Source: a phage. Taken from it: DNA of 64,000 bases. A program made the position numbers and the translations under genes. The notes under the pieces are model-generated. The model did no database searches. It had not been told where the DNA came from and was given only the letters and a program-made list of their open reading frames with translations. Positions 1-64,000 of the stretch are shown here, piece after piece. Numbering within the stretch: position 1 is the stretch's first letter; each line of letters begins with the position of its first letter. The DNA is taken from the sequence record PV467749.1. One strand, given 5' to 3'.

Positions 1-203
1 AACTTTTCTGGATACATTTCGTAATAGAAACGGTTCTTCCAAAATGTTTCACGATTCTTTTTGTTGAATTCAGCTAAATCGAATTTCATCTTACTGTGGA
101 AACGGTCTATACCGTCATGTTCCGCAATGTACTCTAACAGATTATCAATAATCTCAACTTTACCTGAATCATGGTACAACGTAAATGTTTGGTCAAAAAA
201 CAT
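1..203 (-). CDS. hypothetical protein, N-terminal part (gene runs off the left edge)
   Basis: ATG at 201-203 with GGAG 6 nt upstream; frame open to base 1 (MFFDQTFTLYHDSGKVEIIDNLLEY...). Confidence 0.5.
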   Translation of the reverse strand, partial: MFFDQTFTLYHDSGKVEIIDNLLEYIAEHDGIDRFHSKMKFDLAEFNKKNRETFWKNRFYYEMYPEK

Positions 204-293
204 ATATTTCTCCTTTAAGTTAAACTAACCTAATGGAATGTCATTCTTCCTTTACTACATGTTCTCATGGTTTAATCCTTTTGTCAATATATA

Positions 294-324
294 GAAAGAA
301 AAAATCCCTGCCAAAAGACAGGGA
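294..324 (-). terminator. intrinsic terminator
   Basis: Stem TCCCTG/CAGGGA (305-324) followed on the minus strand by a T-run; lies downstream of CDS 420..617. Confidence 0.6.
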
Positions 325-419
325 TGAAAAACTGAAATAACACATGGAGTTCTTTTTAAATTAATAAAAAGTATTATTATTCTTATGAAAGTATTTATCA
401 TGAACTCCAGTTTATTGCT

Positions 420-617
420 TCAAATGCCCCAATAACCTTTTTGTGCTACTATCTCACGGTATTGAGCACGAGTTAGAACACCTTGTTTACGTAGAGCTTG
501 AAGACCTGATAGGGTTTCTGCTTTACGTAGTTCGTAATTGCGTTGTTCTTTAGATTGAATAACTTTAACTTTCTTAACTTTTGCTACTGGTTCTTTTTTC
601 TTAGGTTGCTTTGCCAT
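420..617 (-). CDS. small Lys-rich basic protein, unknown function
   Basis: 65 aa, MAKQPKKKEPVAKVKKVKV...; GGAG-type RBS; sits between a promoter and a terminator. Confidence 0.55.
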   Translation of the reverse strand: MAKQPKKKEPVAKVKKVKVIQSKEQRNYELRKAETLSGLQALRKQGVLTRAQYREIVAQKGYWGI

Positions 618-647
618 GAGTATTTCTCCTTTGTTGTTAACAATATT

Positions 648-675
648 ATTATATCATGTATGGGACGAATGTCCC
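648..675 (-). promoter_or_regulatory. sigma70-like promoter with extended -10
   Basis: Minus strand GGGACA-N16-TATAAT with TGA immediately upstream of the -10. Confidence 0.5.
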
Positions 676-680
676 ATACA
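657..680 (-). promoter_or_regulatory. perfect 10-bp stem-loop just after the phoH stop
   Basis: TGTATGGGAC-GAAT-GTCCCATACA; no U-run follows, so not a canonical terminator; overlaps the -35 of the promoter. Confidence 0.45.
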
Positions 681-683
681 TTA

Positions 684-2123
684 TTACATATTTTCTTCAG
701 CAAATTCTGCCAGTGGTGAACGAACGACACCTTCTAGTTCGATTACACGACAACCGTCCCAGTTCTTGAACTTCTCGGTAACATAAGTTAGACCGCTGTT
801 AACTGGACTAATGAATTTAGAGTCAATCTGGCTCAAGTTGCCCATAATAACCACTTTACAGTTCATTCCTGCACGAGTCAGGATTGTTTTAGCCTGAGCA
901 GGAGTAATGTTCTGGAATTCATCCACTACTAGGATAGTGTTTGTGAAAGAACGCCCACGAACGAAGTTTAGTGCTTTGAACTGGATAACATTACGTTTCA
1001 TGATTTCTTCGATACTGCCTTGTGGGTTAGCATCATCTTTGTGTAGGAATTCCAACGCATCAATGGCAGCTCCACAGAATGGAATCACCTTCTCTGCCTC
1101 AGAACCTGGCAAGAAACCAATGTCTTCGAATTGGGAATCTTGTGTTTTGGAGAAGATGATACGGTCGTATTTTTTCTTCTCTAGTACTAGCTCCAGTGCA
1201 GTAGCAATGGTGATCAATGTTTTACCAGTACCTGCGGAACCCAACAGTACTGTTAGATGAACATCAGGATCTAGAATACTGTTGATTGCTAGTGCTTGCT
1301 GAATATTCTTAGCCTTGATACCCCACACTTTAGCACGTAAAGCGACTGATTGTCCAACGTCTTGGAATACAAGAATATCTTCTGGTGTTAAAGTACCATC
1401 GTCTTCTTCAATTGCCGATTGACCTTCGTACACAAATAGAACATCAGCATTATCATATAGGTAATCACCGATGCAAATATTTTGTGGCATGATATGTTCA
1501 ATCAAGCTTTTTGGAATGTAGTGATACAAACGGCGACCAACTTGTTCAGATTGGATAGACACATCAGTTAGATTGCTATACACATCCCAAAAATCTAGGT
1601 CGAGGTGATGTTGACCAATGTGAATCAAATCACTATCACCAATCACGATATCATGACGGTAATCTTGAACTTCTACTCCGTAGCTTAGAGCCTTGATACG
1701 CATATTGATATCACGGGTAACCAGTACTGAATCAGTTGCTAATGCTACTAAAATGATTTTATCATCTGGTACTGTGCTTTTTAGAAGAGTTTGAACTTTC
1801 TCTTCGTTACCAGCAGTACGAATTAGTGCTTCAGCTTCTTCGCTTGTAATAACAAACAATTTGCTTTCAGGACTCATATTAGTATGAACATCAGCAATAT
1901 TAACACCAGTACTACTAATTTCTTCATGTGATGCATCAGAAAGGATTGCTTCAATGTTACGGATTGCAACACGAGCATCACGGGAAACATCCACATTACG
2001 ACTTTTGATTGAATCCAATTCTTCAAGTACTGTGAACGGTAGAATGATAGCTGCTCCATCAAAAGCAATGGTAGCATTTGGATCAGATAGTAGTACGTTT
2101 GTGTCAATTGTATATTTTTTCAT
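684..2123 (-). CDS. phoH: PhoH-like ATPase with N-terminal PIN domain
   Basis: 479 aa; N-terminal YTIDTNVLLSDPNA (PIN-like); Walker A GSAGTGKT; PhoH-type FLPGSEAEKVIPF. Confidence 0.9.
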   Translation of the reverse strand: MKKYTIDTNVLLSDPNATIAFDGAAIILPFTVLEELDSIKSRNVDVSRDARVAIRNIEAILSDASHEEISSTGVNIADVHTNMSPESKLFVITSEEAEALIRTAGNEEKVQTLLKSTVPDDKIILVALATDSVLVTRDINMRIKALSYGVEVQDYRHDIVIGDSDLIHIGQHHLDLDFWDVYSNLTDVSIQSEQVGRRLYHYIPKSLIEHIMPQNICIGDYLYDNADVLFVYEGQSAIEEDDGTLTPEDILVFQDVGQSVALRAKVWGIKAKNIQQALAINSILDPDVHLTVLLGSAGTGKTLITIATALELVLEKKKYDRIIFSKTQDSQFEDIGFLPGSEAEKVIPFCGAAIDALEFLHKDDANPQGSIEEIMKRNVIQFKALNFVRGRSFTNTILVVDEFQNITPAQAKTILTRAGMNCKVVIMGNLSQIDSKFISPVNSGLTYVTEKFKNWDGCRVIELEGVVRSPLAEFAEENM

Positions 2124-2184
2124 AAAACATCCTTGAGTTATGAGTACATCCTTGTACTCGACTAATGGTTAGTGACTCGGAATA

Positions 2185-2804: not shown

Positions 2805-2813
2805 TTTAAACTC

Positions 2814-23303: not shown

Positions 23304-23603
23304 TTATCCTCTTAGTTTAATAGTACTGGCTGGATAATCTACCATAGTACTATCTGGTAATCCTATACAGTAATAAGGAAAATATCCCATCATATTAATA
23401 CCAATTAACATTCCTGTTTTATATGAAGTATTAATTTCATAGTGGTCGTCTATATCAACCGCCAGTCCATATAAGGATATGTTACAATCCTTGATGTATC
23501 GTTCAAAGATTTTATACATTGATGGGTATACAGTTCCATTGGATTCTCTCACTACATCAGCCAACAACTTTATAGTACTGTTAATTAAATCTATACTAAT
23601 CAT
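23304..23603 (-). CDS. hypothetical protein
   Basis: 99-aa ORF. Confidence 0.6.
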   Translation of the reverse strand: MISIDLINSTIKLLADVVRESNGTVYPSMYKIFERYIKDCNISLYGLAVDIDDHYEINTSYKTGMLIGINMMGYFPYYCIGLPDSTMVDYPASTIKLRG

Positions 23604-23615
23604 CTTTGTACCTGC

Positions 23616-23640
23616 GAAAAAAGACCAGCAAACGCTGGCC
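23616..23640 (-). terminator. intrinsic terminator
   Basis: Minus strand GGCCAGC-GTTT-GCTGGTC followed by TTTTTT; after the stop of 23648..23929. Confidence 0.7.
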
Positions 23641-23647
23641 TTAAAAT

Positions 23648-23929: not shown

Positions 23930-23938
23930 AACAGTTCC

Positions 23939-24667: not shown

Positions 24668-24692
24668 TTCACATTCCTTGTGTTTATGATTT

Positions 24693-25625: not shown

Positions 25626-25656
25626 TCCTTGTGTTAGTTATTGTTCCTCATCCAAT

Positions 25657-53282: not shown

Positions 53283-53638
53283 TATGTAATTCCTATATTG
53301 AATTTGTATTCTTGATTAATACTTACATTGGATGTATTCAAAGCAGCATACTCTTTCATTTCATTTTGTATTGTAATAACTTCTTCAAATGTACACAAGT
53401 ACTTCTTATCAAATACTAATGCAGCTTGGAATAGTTCAGCGGCATCCATTACTGTATAATCCGGCATATCTTGATGTGGATACTGTAATGAATCGTAATC
53501 AATAAATGTAAATTTACCCTGAGTGTAATGAATATACTCATTTGCACTGTGCATTAAATCACCTTTGTTTAAATTACAAAAGTACTGAAAACTGTTCTTA
53601 AAAGAATGTACTGATATTACAAAATCAAATTCCATCAC
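53282..53638 (-). CDS. FQ-motif family protein (short form)
   Basis: 118 aa; CNLNKGDLMH...VMDAAELFQAALVFDKKYLCTFEEV. Confidence 0.75.
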   Translation of the reverse strand: MMEFDFVISVHSFKNSFQYFCNLNKGDLMHSANEYIHYTQGKFTFIDYDSLQYPHQDMPDYTVMDAAELFQAALVFDKKYLCTFEEVITIQNEMKEYAALNTSNVSINQEYKFNIGIT

Positions 53639-54012
53639 TCTTCCCCTAGATTGAAATGATTACTAAAATTAGTTTCACCAGTTTTACACCATTTATCTAT
53701 ACATTCCCTGTGAATGCATTTAATTCTACGCTGGATTTCAACAATCTCTTCTAATGTACAGATGTACTTCTTGTCAAATACTAATGACTCCTGAAATAGT
53801 GCAGCATCATCCATTAAGGTATAGTCCAGCATATCGGTTGCTTTACAACTAAATCCAGTACCAAGATCCATTAAATAAAATTGTGAATTCCAGAACTTTA
53901 TAACCTTGCCCCTTGTGTAGTTTAAATCACCTTTGTACAAATTACAACACGTAATCAACTCACCCGTGTACATCCATGTCCCTATACAAAATTCATTATA
54001 TTTTATTTCCAT
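53635..54012 (-). CDS. FQ-motif family protein (short form)
   Basis: Track start is TTG 54048; ATG 54012 gives 125 aa, collinear with its two neighbours; LMDDAALFQESLVFDKKYICTLEEI. Confidence 0.7.
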   Translation of the reverse strand: MEIKYNEFCIGTWMYTGELITCCNLYKGDLNYTRGKVIKFWNSQFYLMDLGTGFSCKATDMLDYTLMDDAALFQESLVFDKKYICTLEEIVEIQRRIKCIHRECIDKWCKTGETNFSNHFNLGEE

Positions 54013-54210
54013 AATAATCTCTACTGTAATTAATAAGGTAAACTCCAATATAAGGAGAACGTTTGCGGGGGCGGGGTATTTTTTGTTTCAGGAAACATGA
54101 ACTGTACTCTGTGAACACATTTTAAAACTTTATATTAAACATATACCTTAACATGTTTTTCAGCGAAAATTTTTTTGACCCCCCCAGCGGCCTGTGAAAA
54201 CGAAACGTCT

Positions 54211-54426
54211 CTATTTATTCAGCCTAGAAATCTTGATTTCTTCAATCCTTTTCATTGCACAAAGCCTTCGACTCGTCTTCTCGTATATATTCAATACTCG
54301 TTGTACTGCATTATCTGCATCTGCAATCTGAACCAAATATGTATCCTTCAAAATCGAATCCATCATGTATTCAAAACCTTTCACACTATAGCAATATACC
54401 ACTTCCGGCTCTTCAAACGTAATCAT
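54211..54426 (-). CDS. small hypothetical protein
   Basis: 71-aa ORF. Confidence 0.5.
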   Translation of the reverse strand: MITFEEPEVVYCYSVKGFEYMMDSILKDTYLVQIADADNAVQRVLNIYEKTSRRLCAMKRIEEIKISRLNK

Positions 54427-54616
54427 AATTCCAATCCCCTATCCCATCTAACCTTCTAAGATATCTTGCGTAAATTATTTCGAAATATCTGTGCAACGAA
54501 ATTACGGATTGCTCATAATCATCATTCCTGTACATTGTGCATGTAAGAAAATCATTTAAACCGTAATCTAAACTGCACTTGAACTTCTCCTTTGCAACAT
54601 CTCTAAAATTATCCAT
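54413..54616 (-). CDS. small hypothetical protein
   Basis: 67-aa ORF. Confidence 0.5.
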   Translation of the reverse strand: MDNFRDVAKEKFKCSLDYGLNDFLTCTMYRNDDYEQSVISLHRYFEIIYARYLRRLDGIGDWNYDYV

Positions 54617-54770
54617 AATATGTCCTCTGCACAGCGTAGGTGTACTGTGAACTCAGCACCGTTAATAGGTAATCTATGTTGTAAGCACGATTTCCTCGTT
54701 GACTAGCACGGCTAGAATAAAGAATATTATCCACATATGTATCGAACTGTTCTTCAAATAACTCTTTCAT
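54609..54770 (-). CDS. possible small protein (53 aa), below the ORF-track cutoff
   Basis: MKELFEEQFDTYVDNILYSS...; ATGGATAA overlap with the next start; AAGGGTG upstream. Confidence 0.4.
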   Translation of the reverse strand: MKELFEEQFDTYVDNILYSSRASQRGNRAYNIDYLLTVLSSQYTYAVQRTYYG

Positions 54771-54779
54771 CAGCACCCT

Positions 54780-55334
54780 TTAGCACCCTTTAACAACTTT
54801 TGAAATGTAATCTTCTAATGCACCAATGTTCTTTGTATTCGTTCGAACTAAAAGATAACTTAAATCCTCGAACTCCTGAACATAATGCTTAACAGCGTAC
54901 ATGCATCGTAATTCAAAATCTGTATGAACCGTTTTGTACTGAAATAACATCTCTTCTGAAGCCTCTAAAAGCTCTGTGGCTTGTTCTGTACTGAACTTAA
55001 AGGGATTCTGTACTCCTGAACTAAAACACTTTTGTTCGTTCGTCTGGACACCCTGTGATAGATATAATCCTGTGCTACCATCTTGTGTTGATATCGAATT
55101 GAAACCATTACTTGCAACCATTAAATCTGAACTCAATACAAATAATAATTTATCTTCCTTATGAATTAATAAATCTGACTTCAGGGATTTTATTCCTGTA
55201 CTGGTTATATCACCTATACTAAGATTGTCACTGAACTTCTCAGCGTTGTTCGCAATGCTCTGGACAAGATTTTTTAATCTCTTAATGGCACTTCTGTCTT
55301 TTTCTAATGTATCTAATAAACTCATTGAACTCAT
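54780..55334 (-). CDS. FQ-motif family protein
   Basis: 184 aa from ATG 55334 (AAGGAAAG RBS); MSSMSLLDTLEKD...EASEEMLFQYKTVH. Confidence 0.7.
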   Translation of the reverse strand: MSSMSLLDTLEKDRSAIKRLKNLVQSIANNAEKFSDNLSIGDITSTGIKSLKSDLLIHKEDKLLFVLSSDLMVASNGFNSISTQDGSTGLYLSQGVQTNEQKCFSSGVQNPFKFSTEQATELLEASEEMLFQYKTVHTDFELRCMYAVKHYVQEFEDLSYLLVRTNTKNIGALEDYISKVVKGC

Positions 55335-55344
55335 TGTACTTTCC

Positions 55345-55689
55345 TTACATATTTGTACCGAACAAAACGGAACTTTGAATGCCATTAATCGACACTTCAT
55401 GTACATATATATTTTGTCTGAATACCTGAAGCAATTGAACTAAACTCTGTTGCATAATAATATGCATCGCTAAATTATCAAAGGCCGTTTCGTATTGGAA
55501 TCGTGCAGCTTCATCTTCTATGAAATTCGGAACTTGGACTGGATTTTCAAAATTTGTCCTTGTACTGAACTGTACATCATTGTCCTGTACCTTAATACCA
55601 TATGAATTATCATTGTTATCAACTACATCAAATTCAATTAAACTACCATCTTTACTGACGTTTACTATATAAACTGAAAATCTACTCAT
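55345..55689 (-). CDS. FQ-motif family protein (short form)
   Basis: 114 aa; IEDEAARFQYETAFD. Confidence 0.65.
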   Translation of the reverse strand: MSRFSVYIVNVSKDGSLIEFDVVDNNDNSYGIKVQDNDVQFSTRTNFENPVQVPNFIEDEAARFQYETAFDNLAMHIIMQQSLVQLLQVFRQNIYVHEVSINGIQSSVLFGTNM

Positions 55690-56204
55690 AATCCTATTTC
55701 CTTTAAATCTTCCAAAAATGTTTCATAATCACTTAAGGAAAAAAAGATATCCGTATCGATGTTCGCATCTAATACATTATACAAATTCTGCATCTGTAAC
55801 ACATCAGGAGCATCAATCAATGATTGCTGGAAATATGCAGCTTCATCTTCTAAAATATCCCTGAATGATCTCTCTCGTACTCTGTGGTGTACTGAATTGA
55901 ATATTGATTTCTCATCCTTAAGCATTGGTAGGTATCGAATGTACATGTGTTCTCTTAGCTCTGGACTGATGGAACCCCTGAACTGTAACACGTATTCGAA
56001 GCACATAACAACATCCTGAAGGTAATTGGCACTGTAATTATTGCTGTAAACAATCTTATGACTTCTGAACTCATCATCATTTCTGAACCAATTGTCACCT
56101 ACTCTGGTGTACTTATGACTAAGCAATCCACCCTCTAACGCTTTGATGATCTTCAAAATGTTGTGTGCAAATGCATATGATGTATTGTACTTGGCCTGAT
56201 ACAT
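55686..56204 (-). CDS. FQ-motif family protein
   Basis: 172 aa from ATG 56204 (GAGG RBS); LEDEAAYFQQSLID. Confidence 0.7.
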   Translation of the reverse strand: MYQAKYNTSYAFAHNILKIIKALEGGLLSHKYTRVGDNWFRNDDEFRSHKIVYSNNYSANYLQDVVMCFEYVLQFRGSISPELREHMYIRYLPMLKDEKSIFNSVHHRVRERSFRDILEDEAAYFQQSLIDAPDVLQMQNLYNVLDANIDTDIFFSLSDYETFLEDLKEIGL

Positions 56205-56217
56205 GTGTGCCTCAACC

Positions 56218-56412
56218 TTATCTTGTGTTAAAATATTCACTGAAATGATTATAACACAAAAGCACCACGATGTTAAGCACTCTGTTGTCAAAATCATCTT
56301 GTGATGTAGGATGCAAGGACGCATTGATGTTAAAATTCACTATATCATTGTGGAATTGGTATGTGAACAAATCAAACTTCGTATGCCTTTGTTTGATATC
56401 ATAGGCGGTCAT
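56218..56412 (-). CDS. small hypothetical protein
   Basis: 64 aa; fits exactly between its neighbours once the downstream start is corrected. Confidence 0.5.
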   Translation of the reverse strand: MTAYDIKQRHTKFDLFTYQFHNDIVNFNINASLHPTSQDDFDNRVLNIVVLLCYNHFSEYFNTR

Positions 56413-56413
56413 A

Positions 56414-57022
56414 TTATATATTCAACCCTTTAACAATGGAAATAAATTCTTTGTATACATTTTCAGGTAAAGCTCTACTACCATAAAGAACACTAAATTC
56501 AGGTAACATATCCGAAATCTCTTTCGCTAAATTTATTTCATCCCTGAACATTTGCACAGGCATGATATCCTGTACCAATGATAACTGAAAGAAAAATGAT
56601 TCAATATCTTCATGCACCTCTGAATTTAAATAAATCTCTTCTGGAAACTGGGCTGTACTGTAATAATAAAATACGTCAATTCTTTTTTCATTATTTTGTA
56701 CAAGAGGTAAATTTCTTTCGTCTCTCTTATTAATATTTGTTTTCCATGACTCAATGTTATTCGGAACCCAAAACTCATAAGGTGTCTTCTCTCCTGAAAT
56801 ATTATCCAGCTTCAATCCATAATATTCACTTTCGCCGTACTTTTGCTTCAAAACAATACCTGTACTACTAATGTTTACAATGTACGTATCAACAATCCCT
56901 TCTGTGGTAAAAGGAATATTTAACTCTGAACCTTCAGGGTACTTAGCATTGAATGCATCTAATGCTTTACTTAGCACTGGAATTGCACTTGTACTGTACT
57001 TCATTAATTGGTCTATGTTCAT
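56414..57022 (-). CDS. FQ-motif family protein
   Basis: 202 aa; EDIESFFFQLSLVQD. Confidence 0.7.
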   Translation of the reverse strand: MNIDQLMKYSTSAIPVLSKALDAFNAKYPEGSELNIPFTTEGIVDTYIVNISSTGIVLKQKYGESEYYGLKLDNISGEKTPYEFWVPNNIESWKTNINKRDERNLPLVQNNEKRIDVFYYYSTAQFPEEIYLNSEVHEDIESFFFQLSLVQDIMPVQMFRDEINLAKEISDMLPEFSVLYGSRALPENVYKEFISIVKGLNI

Positions 57023-57567
57023 TTTAATTCCCCTGTAATCATACTGATATTTGAACGATACATATCGTACACTGTACTTTCTTTCTTGTGCACAATGAAA
57101 TCATAAAGATCAACAAATGCAGGAATAATAATCTTGAATGATTTATTTGGGTACGTCCCAAAATCAACTGTACTCAATTTTGCAACGAGCATAACAACAA
57201 AGATTTCTTCTGGACTATGCAATGTACTGTACTGAAAATATTCCTCAGCACTCATGGCACTTATTGCATTTATATCTTGTGTTTGTAATGTAATATTAAG
57301 ATATTCAAAAATAGAATAAAACTCTGATTTTGTTTGTATTTTGTATTTGTCAATTGGGGTATCTCTCATGAACCATAAACGGTCCTGACCATAAAAAGGA
57401 ATGATTGAATTTGGGGAACCCAAAAAAACTTCTTCTCTATCAATATCCTTTAACTCAATTTGCATACCGGATGAATTGGCAATAATTAATTCATTAAAAA
57501 TGTAATGAACCTTGTGTACAATCTCTTGTACTGAATTGAAATCATCTGGTATTTTAAAATTTTCCAT
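57019..57567 (-). CDS. FQ-motif family protein
   Basis: 182 aa from ATG 57567 (AAGGAG RBS); MSAEEYFQYSTLH. Confidence 0.7.
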   Translation of the reverse strand: MENFKIPDDFNSVQEIVHKVHYIFNELIIANSSGMQIELKDIDREEVFLGSPNSIIPFYGQDRLWFMRDTPIDKYKIQTKSEFYSIFEYLNITLQTQDINAISAMSAEEYFQYSTLHSPEEIFVVMLVAKLSTVDFGTYPNKSFKIIIPAFVDLYDFIVHKKESTVYDMYRSNISMITGELK

Positions 57568-57593
57568 AGGTATCTCCTTAAAAATGATTACAC

Positions 57594-57622
57594 ATTGTAC
57601 CATGCATTTGTACTCGTGTCAA
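57594..57622 (-). promoter_or_regulatory. sigma70-like promoter
   Basis: Minus strand TTGACA-N17-TACAAT with TGG upstream of the -10; directly after the terminator. Confidence 0.65.
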
Positions 57623-57623
57623 A

Positions 57624-57653
57624 CAAAAAAAGCCCATATCTTACGATACAGGC
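57624..57653 (-). terminator. intrinsic terminator
   Basis: Minus strand GCCTGTATC-GTAA-GATATGGGC followed by TTTTTTT; overlaps the stop of 57641..58138. Confidence 0.7.
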
Positions 57654-58138
57654 ATGTTTATTTGAATTTCATTGTACAAATCATCAATATATAGACATGA
57701 AAACGATAAACTTTCTTTAACTATATTGTTGTGATAAAGCATTTTAAACACTATATAGAAAAATAAATCAATATCATCATGAACTAAATTCTGCTGGAAC
57801 CACCACTCTTCTGTTAAATCTTGTGCATTAAAATCATCAGGAACTTCAATTGACGACATATCAGCATCTTCTTTGTACTCAAACCACATGTCGTCATTTG
57901 GAAAACGTTCATGCTTCTCTGGGTAACAATTGCTGGGATTAAATGCTAAAATATAAAATACCGTCGCAGAATGTTCTTTATTAAAAAATGAATTATTCCA
58001 CACCTGATACCTTTCACCAACATCAAGCTCTTTTGATACTGATGTTATTGCACATAATGTACGATATATTGTTTCTATTTTGTGAACAAATTTAAAGGCT
58101 GCATCTAAACTAAACTCTAAATCAGACATGCGGTGCAT
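57641..58138 (-). CDS. FQ-motif family protein
   Basis: 165 aa; DLTEEWWFQQNLVHD. Confidence 0.7.
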   Translation of the reverse strand: MHRMSDLEFSLDAAFKFVHKIETIYRTLCAITSVSKELDVGERYQVWNNSFFNKEHSATVFYILAFNPSNCYPEKHERFPNDDMWFEYKEDADMSSIEVPDDFNAQDLTEEWWFQQNLVHDDIDLFFYIVFKMLYHNNIVKESLSFSCLYIDDLYNEIQINMPVS

Positions 58139-58458
58139 AAAATTACCTCAACTAAAATAAGAACGGTATTGAATTCGAGGCAACCTTTGATACCTTGATT
58201 GTACATGTACTTTGCTACTACATATTTCTGTACTAAATTATAATTATTAAATTCCTCAAAATTGTAATTTAGAATGAAATTTGTACTCAAAAATAACTTA
58301 TGCATCTCTAATGCACTCTGATAATATTTGTACAACTCACTGATATCAATACTTTGTAAATCACTTTGTTCATATGTATGATAAGGAATGGCGTCAATAT
58401 CAATATTATTAAACCATTCTCTTAACTTATTAATATCAAATGTATTATTCAGCTTCAT
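58117..58458 (-). CDS. hypothetical protein (possibly a very degenerate FQ-family relative)
   Basis: 113 aa; NFEEFNNYNLVQKY is only loosely similar. Confidence 0.5.
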   Translation of the reverse strand: MKLNNTFDINKLREWFNNIDIDAIPYHTYEQSDLQSIDISELYKYYQSALEMHKLFLSTNFILNYNFEEFNNYNLVQKYVVAKYMYNQGIKGCLEFNTVLILVEVILCTACLI

Positions 58459-59023
58459 AACTCAATACCTCCATTAAGCACTCATAAACACCATCAATCG
58501 CATAAGCACAAAAACTGAAATTAATTTTGTTATTCTTGTGTAATGGACTATCGTGTACTGTACTCAACATAACACTATAAAACAAAGAACGTTCATGTGT
58601 AAATAATGATTCCTGAAAAAATGCTTCCTCTGATTTAATTTTATTATATTCAATCGATTGATCATTAGAATAAAATGAATCTTGATTTGAATTGTACCAT
58701 GTGTAATCCAAATCATTCTTTGATATAACTGGTGTTGGATTAAACTGTAAAAGACTAATAACACTACGGGCATTTGGGGTATCAGGTGTATTGAATCGTT
58801 TATCAAAATGACTCGTGCACGCAATATGTGAATCAAAATCAGATGGTTTAAACCCCATGAATGCGTTAATGATTCTTGTATATGGTTTTTTATTATGTGC
58901 TGCTTTCTGTACATTATATAAGGCTGCAACAATACAAGCTAACTTTTGTCCCATAAGGATTGCATTAGCGTAGGTGTACTGAATTTCATTGTACTCATTG
59001 CTTTCATTGTACTTCGAGATCAT
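58445..59023 (-). CDS. FQ-motif family protein
   Basis: 192 aa; IKSEEAFFQESLFT. Confidence 0.7.
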   Translation of the reverse strand: MISKYNESNEYNEIQYTYANAILMGQKLACIVAALYNVQKAAHNKKPYTRIINAFMGFKPSDFDSHIACTSHFDKRFNTPDTPNARSVISLLQFNPTPVISKNDLDYTWYNSNQDSFYSNDQSIEYNKIKSEEAFFQESLFTHERSLFYSVMLSTVHDSPLHKNNKINFSFCAYAIDGVYECLMEVLSYEAE

Positions 59024-59345
59024 GGAACAGCCTCACTTTGCCTAACTCGTCATTGGATATAAATTCGTTAACAGCTTTCTGTATATTCCTTAATAATAGC
59101 ACATCAAATCCTTTTGTGTCAAGCACACATTGCATTTGGAAGAATTCTTCTTCTGATAATGTATTAAAATCCACAAAATTGTCTAATATTACGTCATTAT
59201 CCAAATGTGCCATGTGCCATGTATTTCTTTCGGAGCGTTTAATAAAATTCCATCCATCTGGATAATCGGGTTCTAATTCTACATATATCCCCGATACTGT
59301 ATAAAGCATTTTATATATCATAACTATTGTACTCATTGCTTTCAC
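59004..59345 (-). CDS. FQ-motif family protein (short form)
   Basis: 113 aa (or 105 aa from ATG 59321, collinear with its neighbour); TLSEEEFFQMQCVLD. Confidence 0.7.
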   Translation of the reverse strand: MKAMSTIVMIYKMLYTVSGIYVELEPDYPDGWNFIKRSERNTWHMAHLDNDVILDNFVDFNTLSEEEFFQMQCVLDTKGFDVLLLRNIQKAVNEFISNDELGKVRLFHDLEVQ

Positions 59346-59653
59346 TGTACGTCGATGTCATAATACGCTCCTACCTCATAATCTTTCTTGCTTTGGAATT
59401 CATTAACGACTTTCTGTATATTTCTTAATGTTACCATGTCATGTCCGTACATGTCAACCACCAATTGCATTTGGAAAAATTCTTCTTCAGATAATGTATT
59501 AAAATCTATAAAATAATCCGTAACAACATGTTCGTCTAAATTTGCCATGTACCATTGATTGGTATCGACCTCTTTAACCAAATTCCATGCATCTGGATCG
59601 GATTCTAATTCTACATATATTAATGTTAATGTATACAGCATTTTATACTTCAT
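59342..59653 (-). CDS. FQ-motif family protein (short form)
   Basis: 103 aa; MKYKMLYTLTLIYVELE...TLSEEEFFQMQLVVD. Confidence 0.75.
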   Translation of the reverse strand: MKYKMLYTLTLIYVELESDPDAWNLVKEVDTNQWYMANLDEHVVTDYFIDFNTLSEEEFFQMQLVVDMYGHDMVTLRNIQKVVNEFQSKKDYEVGAYYDIDVQ

Positions 59654-60203
59654 AACTATATCCTTGCATTAAAAGAACATAAGCAATATCAACTAATTCT
59701 AAACGAATGAAAAATTTTAAATTATCTTTCAATAGATTCAAATGCATTATACTAAACAACATAAGATACTTCATTTGATTTGTATTGTATATTAGGGATG
59801 TCTGAAATACTTCTGCTTCATTGTAAGGATCAATAAATTTTATACCTTCTTCACTGTAATCCGTTTTGGAATTCTGATATATAAAATAATCATCACCAGC
59901 ATTGTACCACAAATAACCTTCAAAACTAGAATCAAATTCTGAATTTTCATTTCGCATTAAAGGTGATACTGAAATTGGATTTGAACCAACTGTTGCACAA
60001 ACCTCAATGTAAGCATCTTCACTTCCCTTAACTTCCTCTTTGATTTTATCATTGTACTGTCCTGCAAAACCAGCTTTTACTTCCAAATATAAACTACTCC
60101 CAACTTTATTAATTCTTAAAAGGGAACTCTGTACTGTATTCGCATTGTTCAGCACTAACGATATTGTGCAAATCTTATGTACCAATAACTCAATATCATT
60201 CAT
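59643..60203 (-). CDS. FQ-motif family protein
   Basis: 186 aa; PYNEAEVFQTSLIY. Confidence 0.7.
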   Translation of the reverse strand: MNDIELLVHKICTISLVLNNANTVQSSLLRINKVGSSLYLEVKAGFAGQYNDKIKEEVKGSEDAYIEVCATVGSNPISVSPLMRNENSEFDSSFEGYLWYNAGDDYFIYQNSKTDYSEEGIKFIDPYNEAEVFQTSLIYNTNQMKYLMLFSIMHLNLLKDNLKFFIRLELVDIAYVLLMQGYSYEV

Positions 60204-60214
60204 ATTGGTATTCC

Positions 60215-60397
60215 TTAATTTGGTGGATTTGGATGTAATAAACGATCTTGATAATTTAAATGCTCTTGTAATATTGCACTAAGATAATAACTAAAATCAT
60301 TAATTCCACCCTTTAAATGTATATTGTAATACATCTTAATGCTTGTAATCAATGAATTATTTAAATCATCAAATGTTCTTGCTTCATATGATTTCAT
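60215..60397 (-). CDS. small hypothetical protein (possibly a divergent family C member)
   Basis: 60-aa ORF. Confidence 0.5.
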   Translation of the reverse strand: MKSYEARTFDDLNNSLITSIKMYYNIHLKGGINDFSYYLSAILQEHLNYQDRLLHPNPPN

Positions 60398-60519
60398 TAA
60401 AATTCTTCCCTCAAATAACGCTTAATGGCACAATCTAAATAAAAATCATAATACATCATATCTCTATTCTTAACCCATACACAATAATCTGCATTAATAT
60501 TTCTTAATAATATATTCAT
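60397..60519 (-). CDS. possible small protein (40 aa), below the ORF-track cutoff
   Basis: MNILLRNINADYCVWVKNRDMMYYDFYLDCAIKRYLREEF; TAATG overlap with the next start. Confidence 0.35.
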   Translation of the reverse strand: MNILLRNINADYCVWVKNRDMMYYDFYLDCAIKRYLREEF

Positions 60520-60536
60520 ATTATAATCTTCACACC

Positions 60537-60947
60537 CTAATCGTGCCATTTAATAGGATACTCCGTTCCATTTATTGTATAAGATATAATCCATCCGTAA
60601 TGAATAGGATGATTTTTGTCTGAAACAGGAATAAAATATAAAGATGTACTAGGATTATAACTGAATAAATCGTTGTTACCAATTGTAAAATGTGATAACT
60701 CAATCTTCCTTGTACCTGTACTTGGACGAAGAACATTCTTAACACCGAAGACTGTACCTTGATATTTCTCGGAAAATTCAAACAATGCATCTGCAATTAA
60801 ATCACGAAACTCCGCATGTATGGTTTCAAAAAAATCTATATTACACGATGTTTTAATATCCTTGAACTCCTTATATAAAGAGCTTCTTGTATTCAAAAGA
60901 AATATTACTTTTTTAAGATCCTGAACTATTTCTGGATTCATATTCAT
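60537..60947 (-). CDS. hypothetical protein (not an FQ-family member)
   Basis: 136-aa ORF. Confidence 0.6.
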   Translation of the reverse strand: MNMNPEIVQDLKKVIFLLNTRSSLYKEFKDIKTSCNIDFFETIHAEFRDLIADALFEFSEKYQGTVFGVKNVLRPSTGTRKIELSHFTIGNNDLFSYNPSTSLYFIPVSDKNHPIHYGWIISYTINGTEYPIKWHD

Positions 60948-61188
60948 TTATCTCATTCTGTAACTTAAGCATCAAAATTTGCATATTAATTTTTTGTACA
61001 AGATGATTGAGAAATTTCTGTACTGTATCTTCTTGTTCTTTTGTACCAAGATAAAATAACATATTAAATTCAGATAATCTCAGAGCGAAATCTTCCTCTC
61101 CCCCTAGTAAACAAAAATCCCTGTACTTTGAAGCATACAAATAAGCATCTATCTTTTTATAATTCACTGTACTTCCTTTCATATGCAT
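60913..61188 (-). CDS. LGT-Q motif small protein (family C)
   Basis: 91 aa; MLFYLGTKEQEDTVQKFLNHL. Confidence 0.6.
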   Translation of the reverse strand: MHMKGSTVNYKKIDAYLYASKYRDFCLLGGEEDFALRLSEFNMLFYLGTKEQEDTVQKFLNHLVQKINMQILMLKLQNEINEYESRNSSGS

Positions 61189-61199
61189 TAGGTATCTCC

Positions 61200-61511
61200 T
61201 TATATATTGACATGTTTTGTTATCCCTGCTGTACCTTGTATTAAATTATCATACATATCGAGCATCACTTTTTGAATACTAATTAATACTGGCATCGTGC
61301 AAATATCAATGTCGTATATTAAGCTGTACTGGAATAATTCCTCTTCCTGCATTTGTACTAAATTAGGTAAAAGATAATTGTCTGCCTCTTCATCCTGGTA
61401 CTTGAAATGCATAACACCATCCTTTTTGTACAAAAGAATGTCAATATCACCTAACTCTTCTGCATAACCAAAAATACATATACTCGATGTTTTTGCTATA
61501 TTAAATTTCAT
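61200..61511 (-). CDS. FQ-motif family protein (short form)
   Basis: 103 aa; QMQEEELFQYSLIYD. Confidence 0.7.
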   Translation of the reverse strand: MKFNIAKTSSICIFGYAEELGDIDILLYKKDGVMHFKYQDEEADNYLLPNLVQMQEEELFQYSLIYDIDICTMPVLISIQKVMLDMYDNLIQGTAGITKHVNI

Positions 61512-61520
61512 ATTCTTCTC

Positions 61521-61844
61521 TTATATGTAGAATTCACATACGCGTTGAACAAAATTCTTTGGAAGATGACAATGTGCAATCATCTGCTTTTGTACTTCCT
61601 TCATGTCTTCGAATGTAAATCCTAAAGAATCATCATGTACTAACAAGTACTGAAACTCTTCTTCTTCAGAGATAGAACATAAATTCGGTACTGAAATTGT
61701 TTTTGCTTTTCTTGCACCCAATTTCCAATGAAAAGAATTATTGCATTTTCTGTACTCAAATATCTTCAACCCAGAACCTGTATTAAAATCAGCTACTACA
61801 ATGTAACATGAATTCTTACGTACAATACAATTGAACTTACGCAT
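61521..61844 (-). CDS. FQ-motif family protein (short form)
   Basis: 107 aa from ATG 61844 (GGAG RBS, TAATG overlap); SISEEEEFQYLLVHD. Confidence 0.7.
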   Translation of the reverse strand: MRKFNCIVRKNSCYIVVADFNTGSGLKIFEYRKCNNSFHWKLGARKAKTISVPNLCSISEEEEFQYLLVHDDSLGFTFEDMKEVQKQMIAHCHLPKNFVQRVCEFYI

Positions 61845-62089
61845 TATCTCCACCTCTCTCCGTCTGTACAAGAGTACTGGTACGTTGTCGTTAGGGTAGG
61901 GACCATGTTTGTAATGGGCATATTATTAACAATAACGGTAACAGGCATAAGAATCGTCTCTTCTCTACTCTGTCCTGTCCTTGTGCAATTCATCTTTTGC
62001 ATTTCATCGGACTCCATGAAATACAATACAAATGGTGCAATCCCAAGAACAATACACAAGACGATAAGGAAATTTAAAAAATTCAACAT
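61844..62089 (-). CDS. small membrane-anchored protein
   Basis: 81 aa; N-terminal TM segment FLNFLIVLCIVLGIAPFVLYF; downstream of a promoter. Confidence 0.55.
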   Translation of the reverse strand: MLNFLNFLIVLCIVLGIAPFVLYFMESDEMQKMNCTRTGQSREETILMPVTVIVNNMPITNMVPTLTTTYQYSCTDGERWR

Positions 62090-62118
62090 AATTTTTACCC
62101 CATGATTAACGTACAGGT

Positions 62119-62147
62119 ACTATATCAGTAATGAAAAGTACTGTCAA
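62119..62147 (-). promoter_or_regulatory. sigma70-like promoter with extended -10
   Basis: Minus strand TTGACA-N17-TATAGT with TGA; -35 lies in a tandem 10-mer AGTACTGTCA x2 (62137-62156). Confidence 0.6.
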
Positions 62148-62153
62148 GTACTG

Positions 62154-62369
62154 TCATTTGCATTTGGACTTTATTTGACACATCAACCCCCAAATTAAAT
62201 ATCGAACACTATCAGCTTGATAGTTTGTTCCTACTGTGTGTTTTAAGATTAACTCATCTTTCAGTACTGAACATTCTGCATTAGATATAGGAAGAGAATT
62301 AATTCTTTTAATTTCTGGTTGTAAAGTCCTGATAAGATTGGTGTAATCTTTGTATGATAATCTTTTCAT
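62154..62369 (-). CDS. LGT-Q motif small protein (family C, divergent)
   Basis: 71 aa; MKRLSYKDYTNLIR...LKHTVGTNYQADSVRYLIWGL. Confidence 0.55.
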   Translation of the reverse strand: MKRLSYKDYTNLIRTLQPEIKRINSLPISNAECSVLKDELILKHTVGTNYQADSVRYLIWGLMCQIKSKCK

Positions 62370-62372
62370 TGT

Positions 62373-62714
62373 TCAGTACTCAACGATGTGTTCTTCATAA
62401 CCATTAAACTCCGGTTTAGTTTCTTTCATTAGGACTACCATTTTATGTACTAATGGCATAGGAAATTCTAAATCCCATACTAATGATTCTTGAAAGTATT
62501 CTTCTTCAGATAAAGTACTTAAATCTTTAATATCAACGTGCTTGTATATTTTATTTTCGTAATTAAGAAATGATATATATAAATCATTAACATAAGAATC
62601 ATAAGTAATTGTGAATGGCTTACCCTTGTAGTCCATTACATCTTTACATAGACTGCATTTGATATATGTATGTTCTTCTGAACTGTATACATTGAGTTGT
62701 ATATTAGTTTTCAT
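62373..62714 (-). CDS. FQ-motif family protein (short form)
   Basis: 113 aa; TLSEEEYFQESLVWDLEFPMPLVHKM. Confidence 0.75.
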   Translation of the reverse strand: MKTNIQLNVYSSEEHTYIKCSLCKDVMDYKGKPFTITYDSYVNDLYISFLNYENKIYKHVDIKDLSTLSEEEYFQESLVWDLEFPMPLVHKMVVLMKETKPEFNGYEEHIVEY

Positions 62715-62728
62715 AGTTACCTTATATA

Positions 62729-63067
62729 TTAATACTCAATAATGTGATCTTCATAACCATTAGGTACAGGCTTAGTTTCTTTTATTAGTACTATCATCTT
62801 ATGTACTAATGGCATAGGAAACTCCAAATCCCATACTAATGATTCTTGAAAGTATTCCTCTTCAGATAAAGTACTTAAATCTTCAATGTCAATGTGTTCG
62901 TACATGTTATATTTGTAATCAGCAAAAGATATATAAAAACCTCTTGTATTATCATAAGTAAGTGCAAATGGCTTACCTTTGTAGTCCATTACAGAGTTAC
63001 ATGTATGGCATTTGATGTATGTACTTGCAAATGATTTATATACCTTGAGTTTTATATTAGTTTTCAT
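62729..63067 (-). CDS. FQ-motif family protein (short form)
   Basis: 112 aa; the closest pair in the array with 62373..62714 (long identical stretches, e.g. MDYKGKPF and LSTLSEEEYFQESLVWDLEFPMPLVHKM). Confidence 0.75.
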   Translation of the reverse strand: MKTNIKLKVYKSFASTYIKCHTCNSVMDYKGKPFALTYDNTRGFYISFADYKYNMYEHIDIEDLSTLSEEEYFQESLVWDLEFPMPLVHKMIVLIKETKPVPNGYEDHIIEY

Positions 63068-63308
63068 ATTTCTCTTTATTAGCTTGTTTAGATTGTTTGG
63101 TTTTATAGTGAATGAAATCTATTAATGTAATCAAGTACAACGTCAAATAGTACTCTTGTTGATCTGTACCTAATGATACAAAGAACTTGTGCTCATAGAT
63201 TAAAACCTGTTTCTCTTCAAATGGACATTTAATCCTCTGTATAGGCTTAAGTAAATGATAGTACTTATTAAATCTATGATACATTTCTAGTTCTGTCAGT
63301 ACTTTCAT
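63057..63308 (-). CDS. LGT-Q motif small protein (family C)
   Basis: 83 aa from ATG 63308; MKVLTELEMYHRF...FFVSLGTDQQEYYLTLYL. Confidence 0.6.
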   Translation of the reverse strand: MKVLTELEMYHRFNKYYHLLKPIQRIKCPFEEKQVLIYEHKFFVSLGTDQQEYYLTLYLITLIDFIHYKTKQSKQANKEKYEN

Positions 63309-63309
63309 A

Positions 63310-63531
63310 TTAAACATGTACTCCATTAGCTGTAGCATCACGTAAAGCTCTCAAATACTTCTGTACTGCTTGCTCTTGATGATCTGTACCTAAAAGTATA
63401 TACATCCATAATTCACTGTAATGTACATCTTGTGTATAAGGGTTGTTGTAACTTTTTGATAATATAGCATCAAATTCAGATGCATGAACCCTTGCGAACT
63501 TAAGCATATCTTGTTGTGTTATGATTCTCAT
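63310..63531 (-). CDS. LGT-Q motif small protein (family C)
   Basis: 73 aa; MRIITQQDMLKFAR...YILLGTDHQEQAVQKYLRAL. Confidence 0.65.
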   Translation of the reverse strand: MRIITQQDMLKFARVHASEFDAILSKSYNNPYTQDVHYSELWMYILLGTDHQEQAVQKYLRALRDATANGVHV

Positions 63532-63743
63532 ATCTTTTCCTGTACTATCTGCATAAGAATCTCTATGTGTGAATTAACAGTTCTCTCTTGATGCTGTGTT
63601 CCTAAGAGTGTCAGTACTATCATCTCTGAACGCAAAAGATTTTTTTCAAGTTCACTTATATCAGTTCTTGAATCAAGTGCCATATATTTGTGATTATTCT
63701 TCCTGAATAGTGCCAAGTACTCTTGATTTGATATTTCCTTCAT
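63528..63743 (-). CDS. LGT-Q motif small protein (family C)
   Basis: 71 aa; MKEISNQEYLALFR...LTLLGTQHQERTVNSHIEIL. Confidence 0.65.
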   Translation of the reverse strand: MKEISNQEYLALFRKNNHKYMALDSRTDISELEKNLLRSEMIVLTLLGTQHQERTVNSHIEILMQIVQEKI

Positions 63744-63970
63744 AGTTTATTCCTGATGCCATTTAAAAGTGCTCTAATATGCTCCTGTACGAATTTGTAC
63801 TGACTGTCTGTTCCTAGAGTGAGTAGTAATCTTAAATCTGAACTTTTGATATGATATTCTAAATCATTATTTGATTCTTGCATCAGTTTCTTAAAGGATG
63901 AGAAGTTTGCAGCCATTAGTTCAATGTATTCTGCTGTTCCTAGTGGTTTGTGTATTGGCTGTTTGTGCAT
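63740..63970 (-). CDS. LGT-Q motif small protein (family C)
   Basis: 76 aa; LLLTLGTDSQYKFVQEHIRAL. Confidence 0.65.
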   Translation of the reverse strand: MHKQPIHKPLGTAEYIELMAANFSSFKKLMQESNNDLEYHIKSSDLRLLLTLGTDSQYKFVQEHIRALLNGIRNKL

Positions 63971-64000
63971 TTTAATTTTATTACCCTTTTGAGTGTATTA

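Follow-up and report, generated by a model that had tools for sequence, protein, structure and literature searches.

Short sequence words that occur far above compositional expectation, such as Chi GCTGGTGG, the KOPS of FtsK, the USS of Haemophilus and the DUS of Neisseria, are scattered through coding DNA in all frames, are kept there by selection or drive and allow own DNA to be told from foreign DNA. All are non-palindromic words of 8-12 nt, which populate cellular chromosomes at about 0.2-1 per kb and are served by a cognate nuclease, translocase or uptake system. The hexamer AGTACT of a jumbo phage shares their excess, their scatter, their maintenance by selection and, potentially, the capacity to mark own DNA, but it is a palindrome of 6-8 bp, occurs in a virus, reaches 2.7 copies per kb and has no known cognate system, while the polarity typical of Chi and KOPS is found in the phage only in one stretch, termed block A below.

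Equally, DNA-coating proteins offer a partial parallel. SPO1 TF1 (hmU DNA) and phi29 p6 are genome-coating regulators that prefer phage DNA, with TF1 depending on the modified base and p6 on bendability. An abundant chromosome-wide protein of this kind, repressing early promoters, would fit the distribution of AGTACT and its placement at promoters; TF1 and p6 differ, however, in reading no defined hexamer, and we know of no such protein for Rak2-like phages. The Trp repressor reads the half-site GNACT in its operator GTACTAGTTAACTAGTAC, and GTACT/AGTAC is a proven helix-turn-helix half-site; in AGTACT, however, the half-sites overlap instead of being separated, and nothing suggests that TrpR is connected with the phage. 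Phage genomes normally avoid restriction sites. The sites of type II restriction-modification systems (ScaI/Eco255I, AGTACT; RsaI/CviQI, GTAC) are the same compact 6-8 bp palindromes with symmetric flanks; unlike these avoided sites, AGTACT is enriched 8-fold while 27 other palindromes are absent. Methyltransferases specific for AGTACT do exist in viruses, as in mollivirus (PMC7253447).

Excess of AGTACT in the window and in related phages

The window, that is, the whole stretch of 64,000 nt analysed, derives from an Asteriusvirus (PBECO4/121Q-like, Rak2-like) jumbo coliphage. Exact counting found 187 copies of AGTACT, an 8.7-fold enrichment over composition, and bore out the strong over-representation in more than one reading frame described in a first-pass annotation of this DNA, whose hand counts (11 in 1-5000, 17 in 33000-38000 and 21 in 45000-50000) were all exact. 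Independent bases predict 21.5 copies, an order-1 Markov model 17.5 and an order-3 Markov model, one of the checks proposed at that time, 78.9 (z = 12). Shuffling synonymous codons gave 55.6 +/- 6.3 copies within genes (maximum 75 in 300 shuffles) and 49.6 +/- 6.1 across genes, and shuffling codon order gave 32.8 +/- 4.6; the count is thus not reproduced by codon-preserving shuffles (33-56 against 187) and codon bias is rejected as its source. By order-3 z-score AGTACT ranks first among hexamers in the window and is the only palindromic hexamer to exceed 2.2-fold, and 27 of the 64 palindromic hexamers do not occur there even once, in agreement with the contrast to the usual palindrome avoidance that had been drawn before.

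The sites are, as had been claimed, not tied to one peptide: 69 lie in the frame AGT-ACT, 66 in xxA-GTA-CTx and 43 in xAG-TAC-Txx, a frame credited earlier with only a few, and nine are intergenic. Copies of the GTAC core are shared evenly among the frames (184/170/187), and the excess of AGTACT is equal in all three. Leucine codons of the CTN type, thought to be unusual, make up 45% of all leucine codons, and the site at 31414, assigned to an ORF-free island, exists but sits within a possible small ORF (31204..31449). Choice among synonymous codons follows the word, with AGT-ACT used for 70 of the 140 Ser-Thr pairs (19 expected) and TAC exceeding TAT 43 to 9 for tyrosine in the context AG-TAY-T. 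The preference for C on the left and G on the right was confirmed, each being present at 79 of the 187 sites in the window (C at -1 in 463 and G at +1 in 427 of the 975 sites of EC.P1), and the extended consensus CAGTACTG has 35 copies in the window where 0.6 are expected; as an octamer the word is 57-fold enriched. Flank information beyond +/-1 is about zero in the window and in EC.P1, which leaves a compact palindrome of 8 bp as the recognition unit, a form typical of type II enzymes.

The whole genome of EC.P1, examined as a further check, holds 975 copies against 120 expected. This 8.1-fold enrichment is, as in the window, the reverse of the under-representation with which a restriction site would behave. 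Samples of RaK2 (119 copies), GAP32 (253), CBB (162) and Yen9-04 (215), with 17 expected in each, extend the excess to five genera of enterobacterial Rak2-like phages. Samples of PA5oct (4 observed, 17 expected), XacN1 (0 and 12) and T4 (12 and 17) do not show it, and neither does the sample of the host E. coli (3 and 12). The excess is clade-specific and not host-general, and phage DNA has about 45 times the density of AGTACT found in the host sample. Averaged over the 350-kb genome, one site occurs about every 370 bp; density is maximal in the 22-kb terminal repeat and early region, with 5-10 sites per kb as compared to about 2.4 per kb in the core genome. Core-genome sites show Poisson scatter without phasing. 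No earlier report of AGTACT enrichment was found in the literature.

Table 1. Features of the window related to AGTACT
Feature	Position	Strand	Basis
Field of AGTACT sites, extended consensus CAGTACTG	1..64000	.	n=187; ~3.3 per kb outside two motif-free stretches
Motif-free stretch, 29% GC; genes 23648..23929, 23939..24667, 24693..25625	23575..25823	-	no AGTAC/GTACT over 2250 bp
Dam-family N6-adenine methyltransferase, candidate modifier only	30006..30530	-	PF05869, E = 4e-33
Block A, without AGTACT, ~17 genes of unknown function	53587..61645	-	exact site positions and GTAC flank counts
Dense stretch, 14 AGTACT in 2.4 kb	61646..64000	-	adjoins block A
Sigma-70-like promoter, -35 bracketed by two overlapping sites	62119..62152	-	11/12 in promoter scan

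Selection and turnover

In comparison with PBECO4, 75% of the AGTACT sites are intact as opposed to 49% of phase-matched neighbouring hexamers (p = 2e-11), and AGTACT ranks first in conservation among the 335 hexamers that have 40 or more copies. The sites are under purifying selection. Between orthologues of the window and of GAP32, each carrying 13 sites, just three positions are common, and one-mismatch neighbours of AGTACT are mildly enriched, as decaying sites would give; individual sites decay and others take their place, with the overall density held. Frames, shuffles, synonymous bias, enrichment in non-coding DNA, conservation and persistence in five genera all support the earlier proposal of selection at the DNA level, and this selection acts on the DNA itself, overriding codon and even dipeptide choice.

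Association with early promoters

The tandem AGTACTGTCA x2 noticed previously at 62137-62156 is present and was further recognised as the -35 region of the minus-strand promoter listed in Table 1, which reads AGTAC-TTGACA-GTACT followed by a 17-nt spacer and a TG-extended TATAGT and which, placed at 62147, points towards block A. About 56 early promoters of EC.P1 have the same AGTACT-bracketed architecture. On the coding strand of this genome, NATAAT is preceded by a site at a distance of 7-8 nt in 31 cases and of 27 nt in 25, the latter overlapping the -35 element, as compared to eight and three at the same distances on the control strand. Pairs of sites 20-24 bp apart are likewise in excess. 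The fixed distance to -10 and -35 expected of a promoter element or operator is therefore seen for a subset of the sites, which could be copies inherited from one duplicated promoter cassette. As 845 of the 975 sites in EC.P1 are located in coding DNA, with non-coding DNA being enriched too, a role at promoters is not the whole explanation.

A block with the word on one strand

The complete absence of AGTACT from 53582-61645 and from 23575-25823 had been overlooked in the first-pass annotation. The former corresponds to block A, which contains 84 GTAC where 23 are expected, of which 75 read TGTAC and 45 TGTACT on the + strand, the latter corresponding to AGTACA on the coding strand of the block; AGTAC is found on the + strand just once. 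GTACA occupies all three frames (24/23/26), and the Ser-Thr pairs of the block are encoded by AGT-ACA in 16 of 18 cases and by AGT-ACT in none of the 18. The block is shared with PBECO4 (7.7 kb), EC.P1 and WPEC3, its one-sidedness is common to two lineages about 80% identical there, and TGTACT is conserved in 61% of cases against 40% for flanking hexamers. Searches of its genes against PHROGs and Pfam found no function. The arrangement suggests a region that escapes the activity of the full site while keeping half-site contacts. Next to it lies the dense stretch of Table 1 and, past the end of the window, an array of very small paralogous genes poor in GTAC, with the terminal repeat beyond it.

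Possible readers of the word

Our favoured, though tentative, reading, held with somewhat less than even confidence, is that positive selection has made AGTACT / CAGTACTG a signature word of enterobacterial Rak2-like jumbo phage chromosomes, recognised in double-stranded DNA by a phage-encoded, two-fold symmetric reader, either a DNA-binding dimer or a modification enzyme resembling those of type II. Because the word is so much denser in the phage, such a reader would tell phage from host DNA, leading to protection, organisation or preferential use; at the sites abutting the -35 and -10 of the early sigma-70 promoters the same reader would switch early transcription, and in block A full palindromes would be forbidden, with one-sided sites in their place. 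Against symmetry speaks that the two flanks of GTAC are nearly independent, A-GTAC-T occurring at only 1.08-1.23 times the product of the flank frequencies even though 36% of the GTAC cores are palindromic, as a strict dimer should couple the halves more tightly. Furthermore, AGTAC is avoided on only one strand of block A with GTACT enriched there, two strand arrangements that a symmetric reader of double-stranded DNA cannot separate. The unphased Poisson scatter of the core-genome sites also counts against the favoured reading. It is possible, if rather doubtful, that enterobacterial Rak2-like phages with their ordinary unmodified bases use a 'self' code in the sequence which replaces base modification of the T4 type, whereby a dedicated phage reader of (C)AGTAC(T/G) about every 370 bp would tell phage from host DNA and so serve protection, replication priming or transcription. 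The early 8-kb block beside the terminal repeat would then be held to a one-sided dialect, CAGTACA.

The same near-independence of the flanks favours the main rival, which we nevertheless judge unlikely, namely a word tied to one strand, 5'-(C)AGTAC-3', that would be recognised in single-stranded DNA or by an enzyme tracking along the DNA. On this view a palindrome would simply be the least costly means of putting the word on both strands of a densely coding genome with forks moving both ways, and block A a stretch always traversed in one direction, consistent with AGTAC on its coding strand only and strictly none opposite in two lineages. T4 origins are promoter-primed, and a strong promoter precedes the block, whose position is about 9-17 kb inside the terminal repeat. 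Among the non-palindromic sites, coding-strand AGTACN outnumbers NGTACT by 106 to 79 in the window outside block A, as derived from the GTAC flank tables, and by 77 to 45 in Yen9-04. The word could be a start site for a T4-type gp61 primase on the lagging-strand template or a Chi-like attenuator of a helicase-nuclease, for which the density contrast between phage and host would suit a self signal. To our knowledge, the primases characterised so far recognise trinucleotides, and no enrichment of such sites is known, which weakens the former candidate, even though these phages encode gp61/gp41 homologues, as reported for CBB (PMC5259590). An additional primase or Chi site would be harmless and leaves the strict exclusion from one strand unexplained, and fixed placement by -35 and -10 elements is not expected of a strand-specific word. 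Equally, no genome-wide switch in AGTAC orientation was demonstrated: strict one-sidedness is confined to one 8-kb block, and the opposite polarity of a block B rests on about eight paralogous sites and provides no solid origin-like switch.

That the word is a functionless by-product of a mutation or repair drive (such as very-short-patch repair at CCWGG), of dipeptide or codon preference or of a dispersed repeat is very improbable. Biased repair could yield enrichment and apparent conservation together, but a drive consumes a source sequence and no one-mismatch neighbour is clearly depleted: AGGACT/AGTCCT, the lowest pair, stands at 0.40 times expectation, within the genome-wide range of hexamers, and the other eight pairs at 0.99-2.24 times, on which grounds a drive of the very-short-patch type is rejected. 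A dispersed repeat (USS/DUS, REP or MITE) is rejected by the lack of flank information past +/-1 and by Poisson spacing. Enrichment in all frames and in non-coding DNA, the failure of the shuffles, the sharp switch to another variant in block A of the same genome and sites at fixed promoter positions all speak against a by-product. Hardly credible, and the least probable of these readings, is a protein of the Enterobacterales host that reads AGTACT and is exploited by the phage, for example SlmA, with phage DNA blocking cell division. All phages in which the enrichment was seen infect Enterobacterales, the sampled E. coli DNA has few copies of AGTACT, and the SlmA site GTGAGTACTCAC, from the order of the phage's host, has AGTACT as its 6-bp core (PMC3020112). 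SlmA requires, however, G and T as the first two bases of its site, followed by a purine (PMC3020112). These outer bases are absent in the phage: the third position is occupied by C at 46% of the sites and by G at only 8.5%, and the first two are at background. These flank classes, together with zero copies of the compatible site GT[AG]AG[CT][AG]CT[CT]AC in EC.P1 (356 kb) and in the window, largely refute SlmA as the reader, and AGTACT is not enriched in T4, a phage of the same host.

The only DNA-modifying enzyme encoded in the window is the methyltransferase of Table 1, which has orthologues in GAP32 and Yen9-04. Its family is spread through T1-like, Stx and other unrelated phages and has no known specificity for AGTACT, so that a link of this enzyme to the word is unsupported; the RaK2 paper reports methylation and does not name an AGTACT motif.

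Implications and a second motif-free stretch

Phages are known to avoid short palindromes; in this clade, too, the majority are avoided, but one is enriched 8-fold across 350 kb, with the choice of codons and dipeptides and the layout of promoters all bending to it. The excess implies that a system specific for this sequence operates in jumbo phages that are poorly understood as a group and have no assigned function for about 70% of their genes, and the word itself is a handle for finding this system by oligonucleotide pull-down, modification calling and primer mapping; digestion with ScaI and RsaI should be highly informative. If the reading as a 'self' code were true, it would represent a novel class of DNA signal, spread over the whole viral genome and read by a protein dedicated to it. 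Recoding and engineering of these phages must respect AGTACT.

The word might furthermore be used as a metagenome signature, both for these phages and for newly acquired DNA inside them. The second motif-free stretch of Table 1 has a GC content of 0.293, and within it 24691-25613 does not align to PBECO4; to judge from these features, it is probably recently acquired DNA which has not yet gained the word.

Over-representation of AGTACT in the window

The palindromic hexamer AGTACT is found 187 times in the window by exact count, above the expectation of every null model applied, which amounts to 21.5 sites for independent bases, 17.5 for an order-1 Markov model, 78.9 for an order-3 Markov model, 55.6 +/- 6.3 and 49.6 +/- 6.1 for synonymous-codon shuffling within and across genes, respectively, and 32.8 +/- 4.6 for shuffling of codon order. 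As none of 900 shuffles under the three latter nulls exceeded 75 sites, codon shuffling does not reproduce the count, and the over-representation that the first-pass annotation had proposed from three local hand counts, all exact upon recounting, is real. Ranked by order-3 z-score, the top three hexamers of the window are AGTACT, GTACTG and CAGTAC, the latter two overlapping the first, and AGTACT alone among the palindromic hexamers is enriched more than 2.2-fold. The general background of the window is palindrome avoidance, since 27 of the 64 palindromic hexamers, including GGATCC, CTGCAG, GTCGAC, CCATGG, GAGCTC and GGTACC, are without any copy; GATC is present at half of its expectation (93 versus 194). 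The GTAC core occurs 565 times versus 194 expected and the extended word CAGTACTG 35 times versus 0.6 expected, and no flank information was found in the window beyond +/-1 of AGTACT.

The first-pass annotation had read this enrichment as a signal of the DNA and not of an encoded peptide, a reading that holds. The word occurs 69, 43 and 66 times in the three frames and nine times between genes, with 184, 170 and 187 copies of GTAC per frame. Equally, synonymous choices are biased, as Ser-Thr is written AGT-ACT in 70 of 140 pairs versus 19.4 expected from codon usage, Val-Leu is written GTA-CTN in 85 of 174 pairs versus 31 expected, and Tyr in the context AG-TAY-T is TAC 43 times and TAT nine times, with TAC at 42% overall. 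In the related Escherichia jumbo phage EC.P1, AGTACT is denser in non-coding (5.25 per kb) than in coding DNA (2.55 per kb). Codon or dipeptide bias is consequently ruled out as the cause by the three shuffle nulls, the even frame spread and the non-coding enrichment.

Distribution in the genome and the clade

Because a 12-kb piece of the window is 96.8-98.6% identical to EC.P1, WPEC5, WPEC3, Ecwhy_1, TH47 and other Escherichia jumbo phages and ~86% identical to PBECO4 and slurp01, the window can be placed by sequence identity in Asteriusvirus, within the 'Rak2-like' group of ~350-kb myoviruses. Nearly all window genes are carried by the minus strand, and the region constitutes the early and nucleotide-metabolism arm running towards the terminal repeat.

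Throughout the EC.P1 genome, AGTACT occurs 975 times versus 120 expected and CAGTACTG 216 times versus 3.8 expected, with 5-42 AGTACT in every 5-kb bin except one motif-free block. Apart from the early region, the sites follow a Poisson scatter without periodicity (mean 2.43 and variance 2.49 per 1-kb bin); this spacing and the lack of information in the flanks rule out a dispersed repeat as the cause. In 50-kb samples of Rak2-like phages of other hosts, versus 17 expected in each, AGTACT was counted 119 times in RaK2 (Klebsiella), 253 times in GAP32 (Cronobacter), 162 times in CBB (Pectobacterium) and 215 times in fHe-Yen9-04 (Yersinia). Samples of the same size from the more distant relatives PA5oct (Pseudomonas) and XacN1 (Xanthomonas) held 4 versus 17 and 0 versus 12 expected, whereby the zero in XacN1 is generic and not AGTACT-specific avoidance, because at least 10 other palindromes are also missing. 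A general coliphage or host property is ruled out by the samples of T4 (12 versus 17 expected) and E. coli K-12 (3 versus 12 expected), which are not enriched; in the sampled DNA, with the host represented by this single 50-kb E. coli sample, phage AGTACT density is ~45 times that of the host.

Coordinates of features in the window and in related phages
Feature	Genome	Position	Strand	Description
NAD-/ADP-ribose-related gene cluster	window; PBECO4	684-4114; gp086-gp095		PhoH-like, Nudix hydrolase, Sir2
Low-GC stretch	window	23575-25823		three genes, 29% GC, ~2.2 kb
Part of low-GC stretch	window	24691-25613		no alignment to PBECO4
Dam-family methyltransferase	window	30006..30530		
Paralogue arrays	window	38000-53700		genes of ~110-200 aa, function unknown for all
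Six-member paralogue family	window	44222-52754		
Five-member paralogue family	window	47015-54048		
Block A	window	53587..61645	minus (genes)	AGTACT-free
Predicted promoter	window	62147	minus	AGTAC-TTGACA-GTACT, 17-nt spacer, TG-TATAGT; 11-of-12 match
Two very large ORFs	EC.P1	207572..212506; 212656..218376	plus	
Counterpart of window	EC.P1	~275.5-340 kb		
Motif-free block	EC.P1	330-335 kb		
Strand-composition change	EC.P1	~340,000 (L007:40000)		gene orientation unchanged
Block B	EC.P1	342,681-347,423 (L007:42681-47423)		beyond right end of window, abuts inner edge of terminal repeat
Early promoter cassettes	EC.P1	L001:1-17000; L007:45000-50000; L008		
Terminal repeat	WPEC3	1-22,503 = 361,629-384,131		exact 22,503-bp direct repeat
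Terminal repeat	CBB			22,456 bp
Terminal repeat	Sharanji			20,668 bp
HTH_37 regulator and sigma-70-family sigma factor	CBB	330,631-332,095 (L013:30631-32095)		early region

Selection and turnover of sites

AGTACT is maintained by selection. The window was aligned with its 71-kb orthologous region in PBECO4, to which it is 84% identical, and no other hexamer among the 335 that occur at least 40 times is as well conserved as AGTACT, with 130 of 173 sites intact compared with 45% for all hexamers and a per-base change of 8.5% inside the sites versus 15.8% overall. The 75% of intact sites compare with 49% for codon-phase-matched hexamers at most 30 nt away (Fisher p = 2e-11). Each lineage holds ~45 private AGTACT, with totals of 187 in the window and 199 in the PBECO4 region. 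In the comparison with GAP32 orthologues (40-58% amino-acid identity), either phage carries 13 sites, of which only 3 have a common position; individual positions turn over at a maintained density. A non-functional by-product is very improbable. Equally, a repair drive of the VSP type is ruled out: one-mismatch neighbours of AGTACT are mostly mildly enriched and none is clearly depleted, with a minimum of 0.40 for AGGACT/AGTCCT, which gives no indication of repair converting a source word into AGTACT. AGTAC and GTACT are absent from the three genes of the low-GC stretch, which is probably a recent insertion that has not yet gained the word.

A one-sided block near the terminal repeat

Block A is located ~9-17 kb inward from the right terminal repeat, with the promoter at 62147 upstream of it. 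It holds no AGTACT and a single AGTAC on the plus strand. GTAC keeps its usual enrichment in the block (84 versus 23 expected), with 75 of the 84 copies reading TGTAC and 45 TGTACT on the plus strand, equivalent to AGTACA on the coding strand. GTACA is spread over the frames (24/23/26), and 16 of the 18 Ser-Thr pairs are written AGT-ACA and none AGT-ACT. As the outer C and G flanks are retained, the local word is CAGTACAG, with one position changed on one strand. Block A is sharply bounded and is also present in EC.P1 and WPEC3, and its PBECO4 counterpart comprises 7.7 kb without AGTAC despite ~80% identity there; block A sites are conserved in 61% of cases versus 40% for phase-matched neighbours (p = 0.013, versus PBECO4). 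For its ~17 genes Pfam and PHROGs return only 'unknown function'.

Block B consists of ~22 tandem tiny paralogous genes (~70 aa) and is GTAC-poor and motif-free. GTACT is absent from its plus strand, and in coding-strand orientation the few sites present are TGTACT, a one-sidedness opposite to that of block A. This polarity deserves little weight, because the paralogues carry these sites as homologous copies at corresponding positions, which equally weakens an origin-like polarity switch between the two blocks; no iterons were found between them. A strand asymmetry at 210-220 kb of EC.P1 falls within two very large ORFs, where TGTACT makes up 6 of 32 non-palindromic NGTACT and G or C precedes most; as a guess, they may be Gly-Thr pairs, encoded GGT-ACT, in repetitive proteins.

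Promoters and the early region

In the EC.P1 early region the word stands at fixed places in strong sigma-70-type promoters, with 31 AGTACT located 7-8 nt upstream of the -10 element, for example in TTGACA-N10-AGTACTG-TATAAT, and 25 at a distance of 27 nt from it, at which AGTACTTGCAA overlaps with the -35 element, versus 8 and 3 sites, respectively, on the control strand. AGTACT pairs spaced 20-24 bp are in excess. What the first-pass annotation had described as a tandem at 62137-62156 stands as a pair of sites and is to be understood as the -35 region of a predicted minus-strand sigma-70 promoter, with the two sites bracketing the -35 hexamer. The direct terminal repeat is the densest AGTACT region of these genomes, with 5-10 sites per kb.

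In WPEC3 the repeat (L019/L020) is packed with tiny genes, each with an individual promoter, and EC.P1 has been deposited as circular without it. The early promoter cassettes of EC.P1 recur and are followed, downstream of the start site, by a conserved hairpin-like leader 'tttacatcaaGGGGAGaa..ttCTCCCC'. The early region of CBB encodes a small HTH_37 regulator and a sigma-70-family sigma factor, possible candidates in relatives to read the promoter-associated sites.

What reads the word

Genomes are known to contain over-represented functional words, such as Chi, KOPS and USS/DUS. A selected palindromic hexamer across a virus that otherwise purges palindromes, combined with a conserved one-sided block, is not known to have been described before; no report of AGTACT enrichment in Rak2-like or Asteriusvirus phages was found in the literature on AGTACT, ScaI, motif and methylation, nor is it mentioned in the genome papers of RaK2, CBB and Sharanji. 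The system behind the word has a real chance of being new.

The footprint, compact at 8 bp and symmetric, and its place in promoters speak, if tentatively, for a clade-encoded reader that recognises double-stranded DNA with two-fold symmetry; it may be either a dimer that binds the word or a modification enzyme similar to those of type II. Given the density contrast between phage and host, such a reader would serve to discriminate 'self', which is attractive for T4-like phages without modified bases; a hmC pathway was not found in RaK2 (RaK2 paper). On the other hand, the flanks of GTAC are nearly independent (observed-to-product ratio 1.08-1.23), which together with the one-strand exclusion in block A counts against a simple dimer model. 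Both observations fit a polar signal, in which the word, 5'-(C)AGTAC-3', would act strand-specifically and would have to be present on either strand across most of the genome; candidates for its reader are a T4-type primase, which these phages encode (gp61/gp41 homologues in CBB, PMC5259590), and a Chi-like control of a nuclease. Such a signal, however, explains neither the promoter placement of AGTACT nor the forbidding of the other orientation and is rather unlikely. That a host factor reads the word is scarcely credible. The SlmA site contains the same core hexamer; however, it requires G and T as its first two bases and a purine as the third (PMC3020112), with which the phage flanks are incompatible, and SlmA is ruled out with 0 compatible sites in 356 kb. 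The Dam-family methyltransferase of the window is real and of a family common in unrelated phages, nothing ties this enzyme to the word, and no homologue was found in the partial genomes sampled from XacN1 and PA5oct.

Further observations in the region

Besides the six- and five-member families, smaller pairs contribute to the paralogue arrays of the window. The NAD-/ADP-ribose-related cluster (L014 in PBECO4) is adjoined by HslV-like peptidase genes and preceded in PBECO4 by a WGR-domain protein just upstream. At ~340,000 of EC.P1 strand composition changes abruptly, with GC skew passing from ~-0.2 to ~0 and AT skew from ~-0.05 to ~-0.2.
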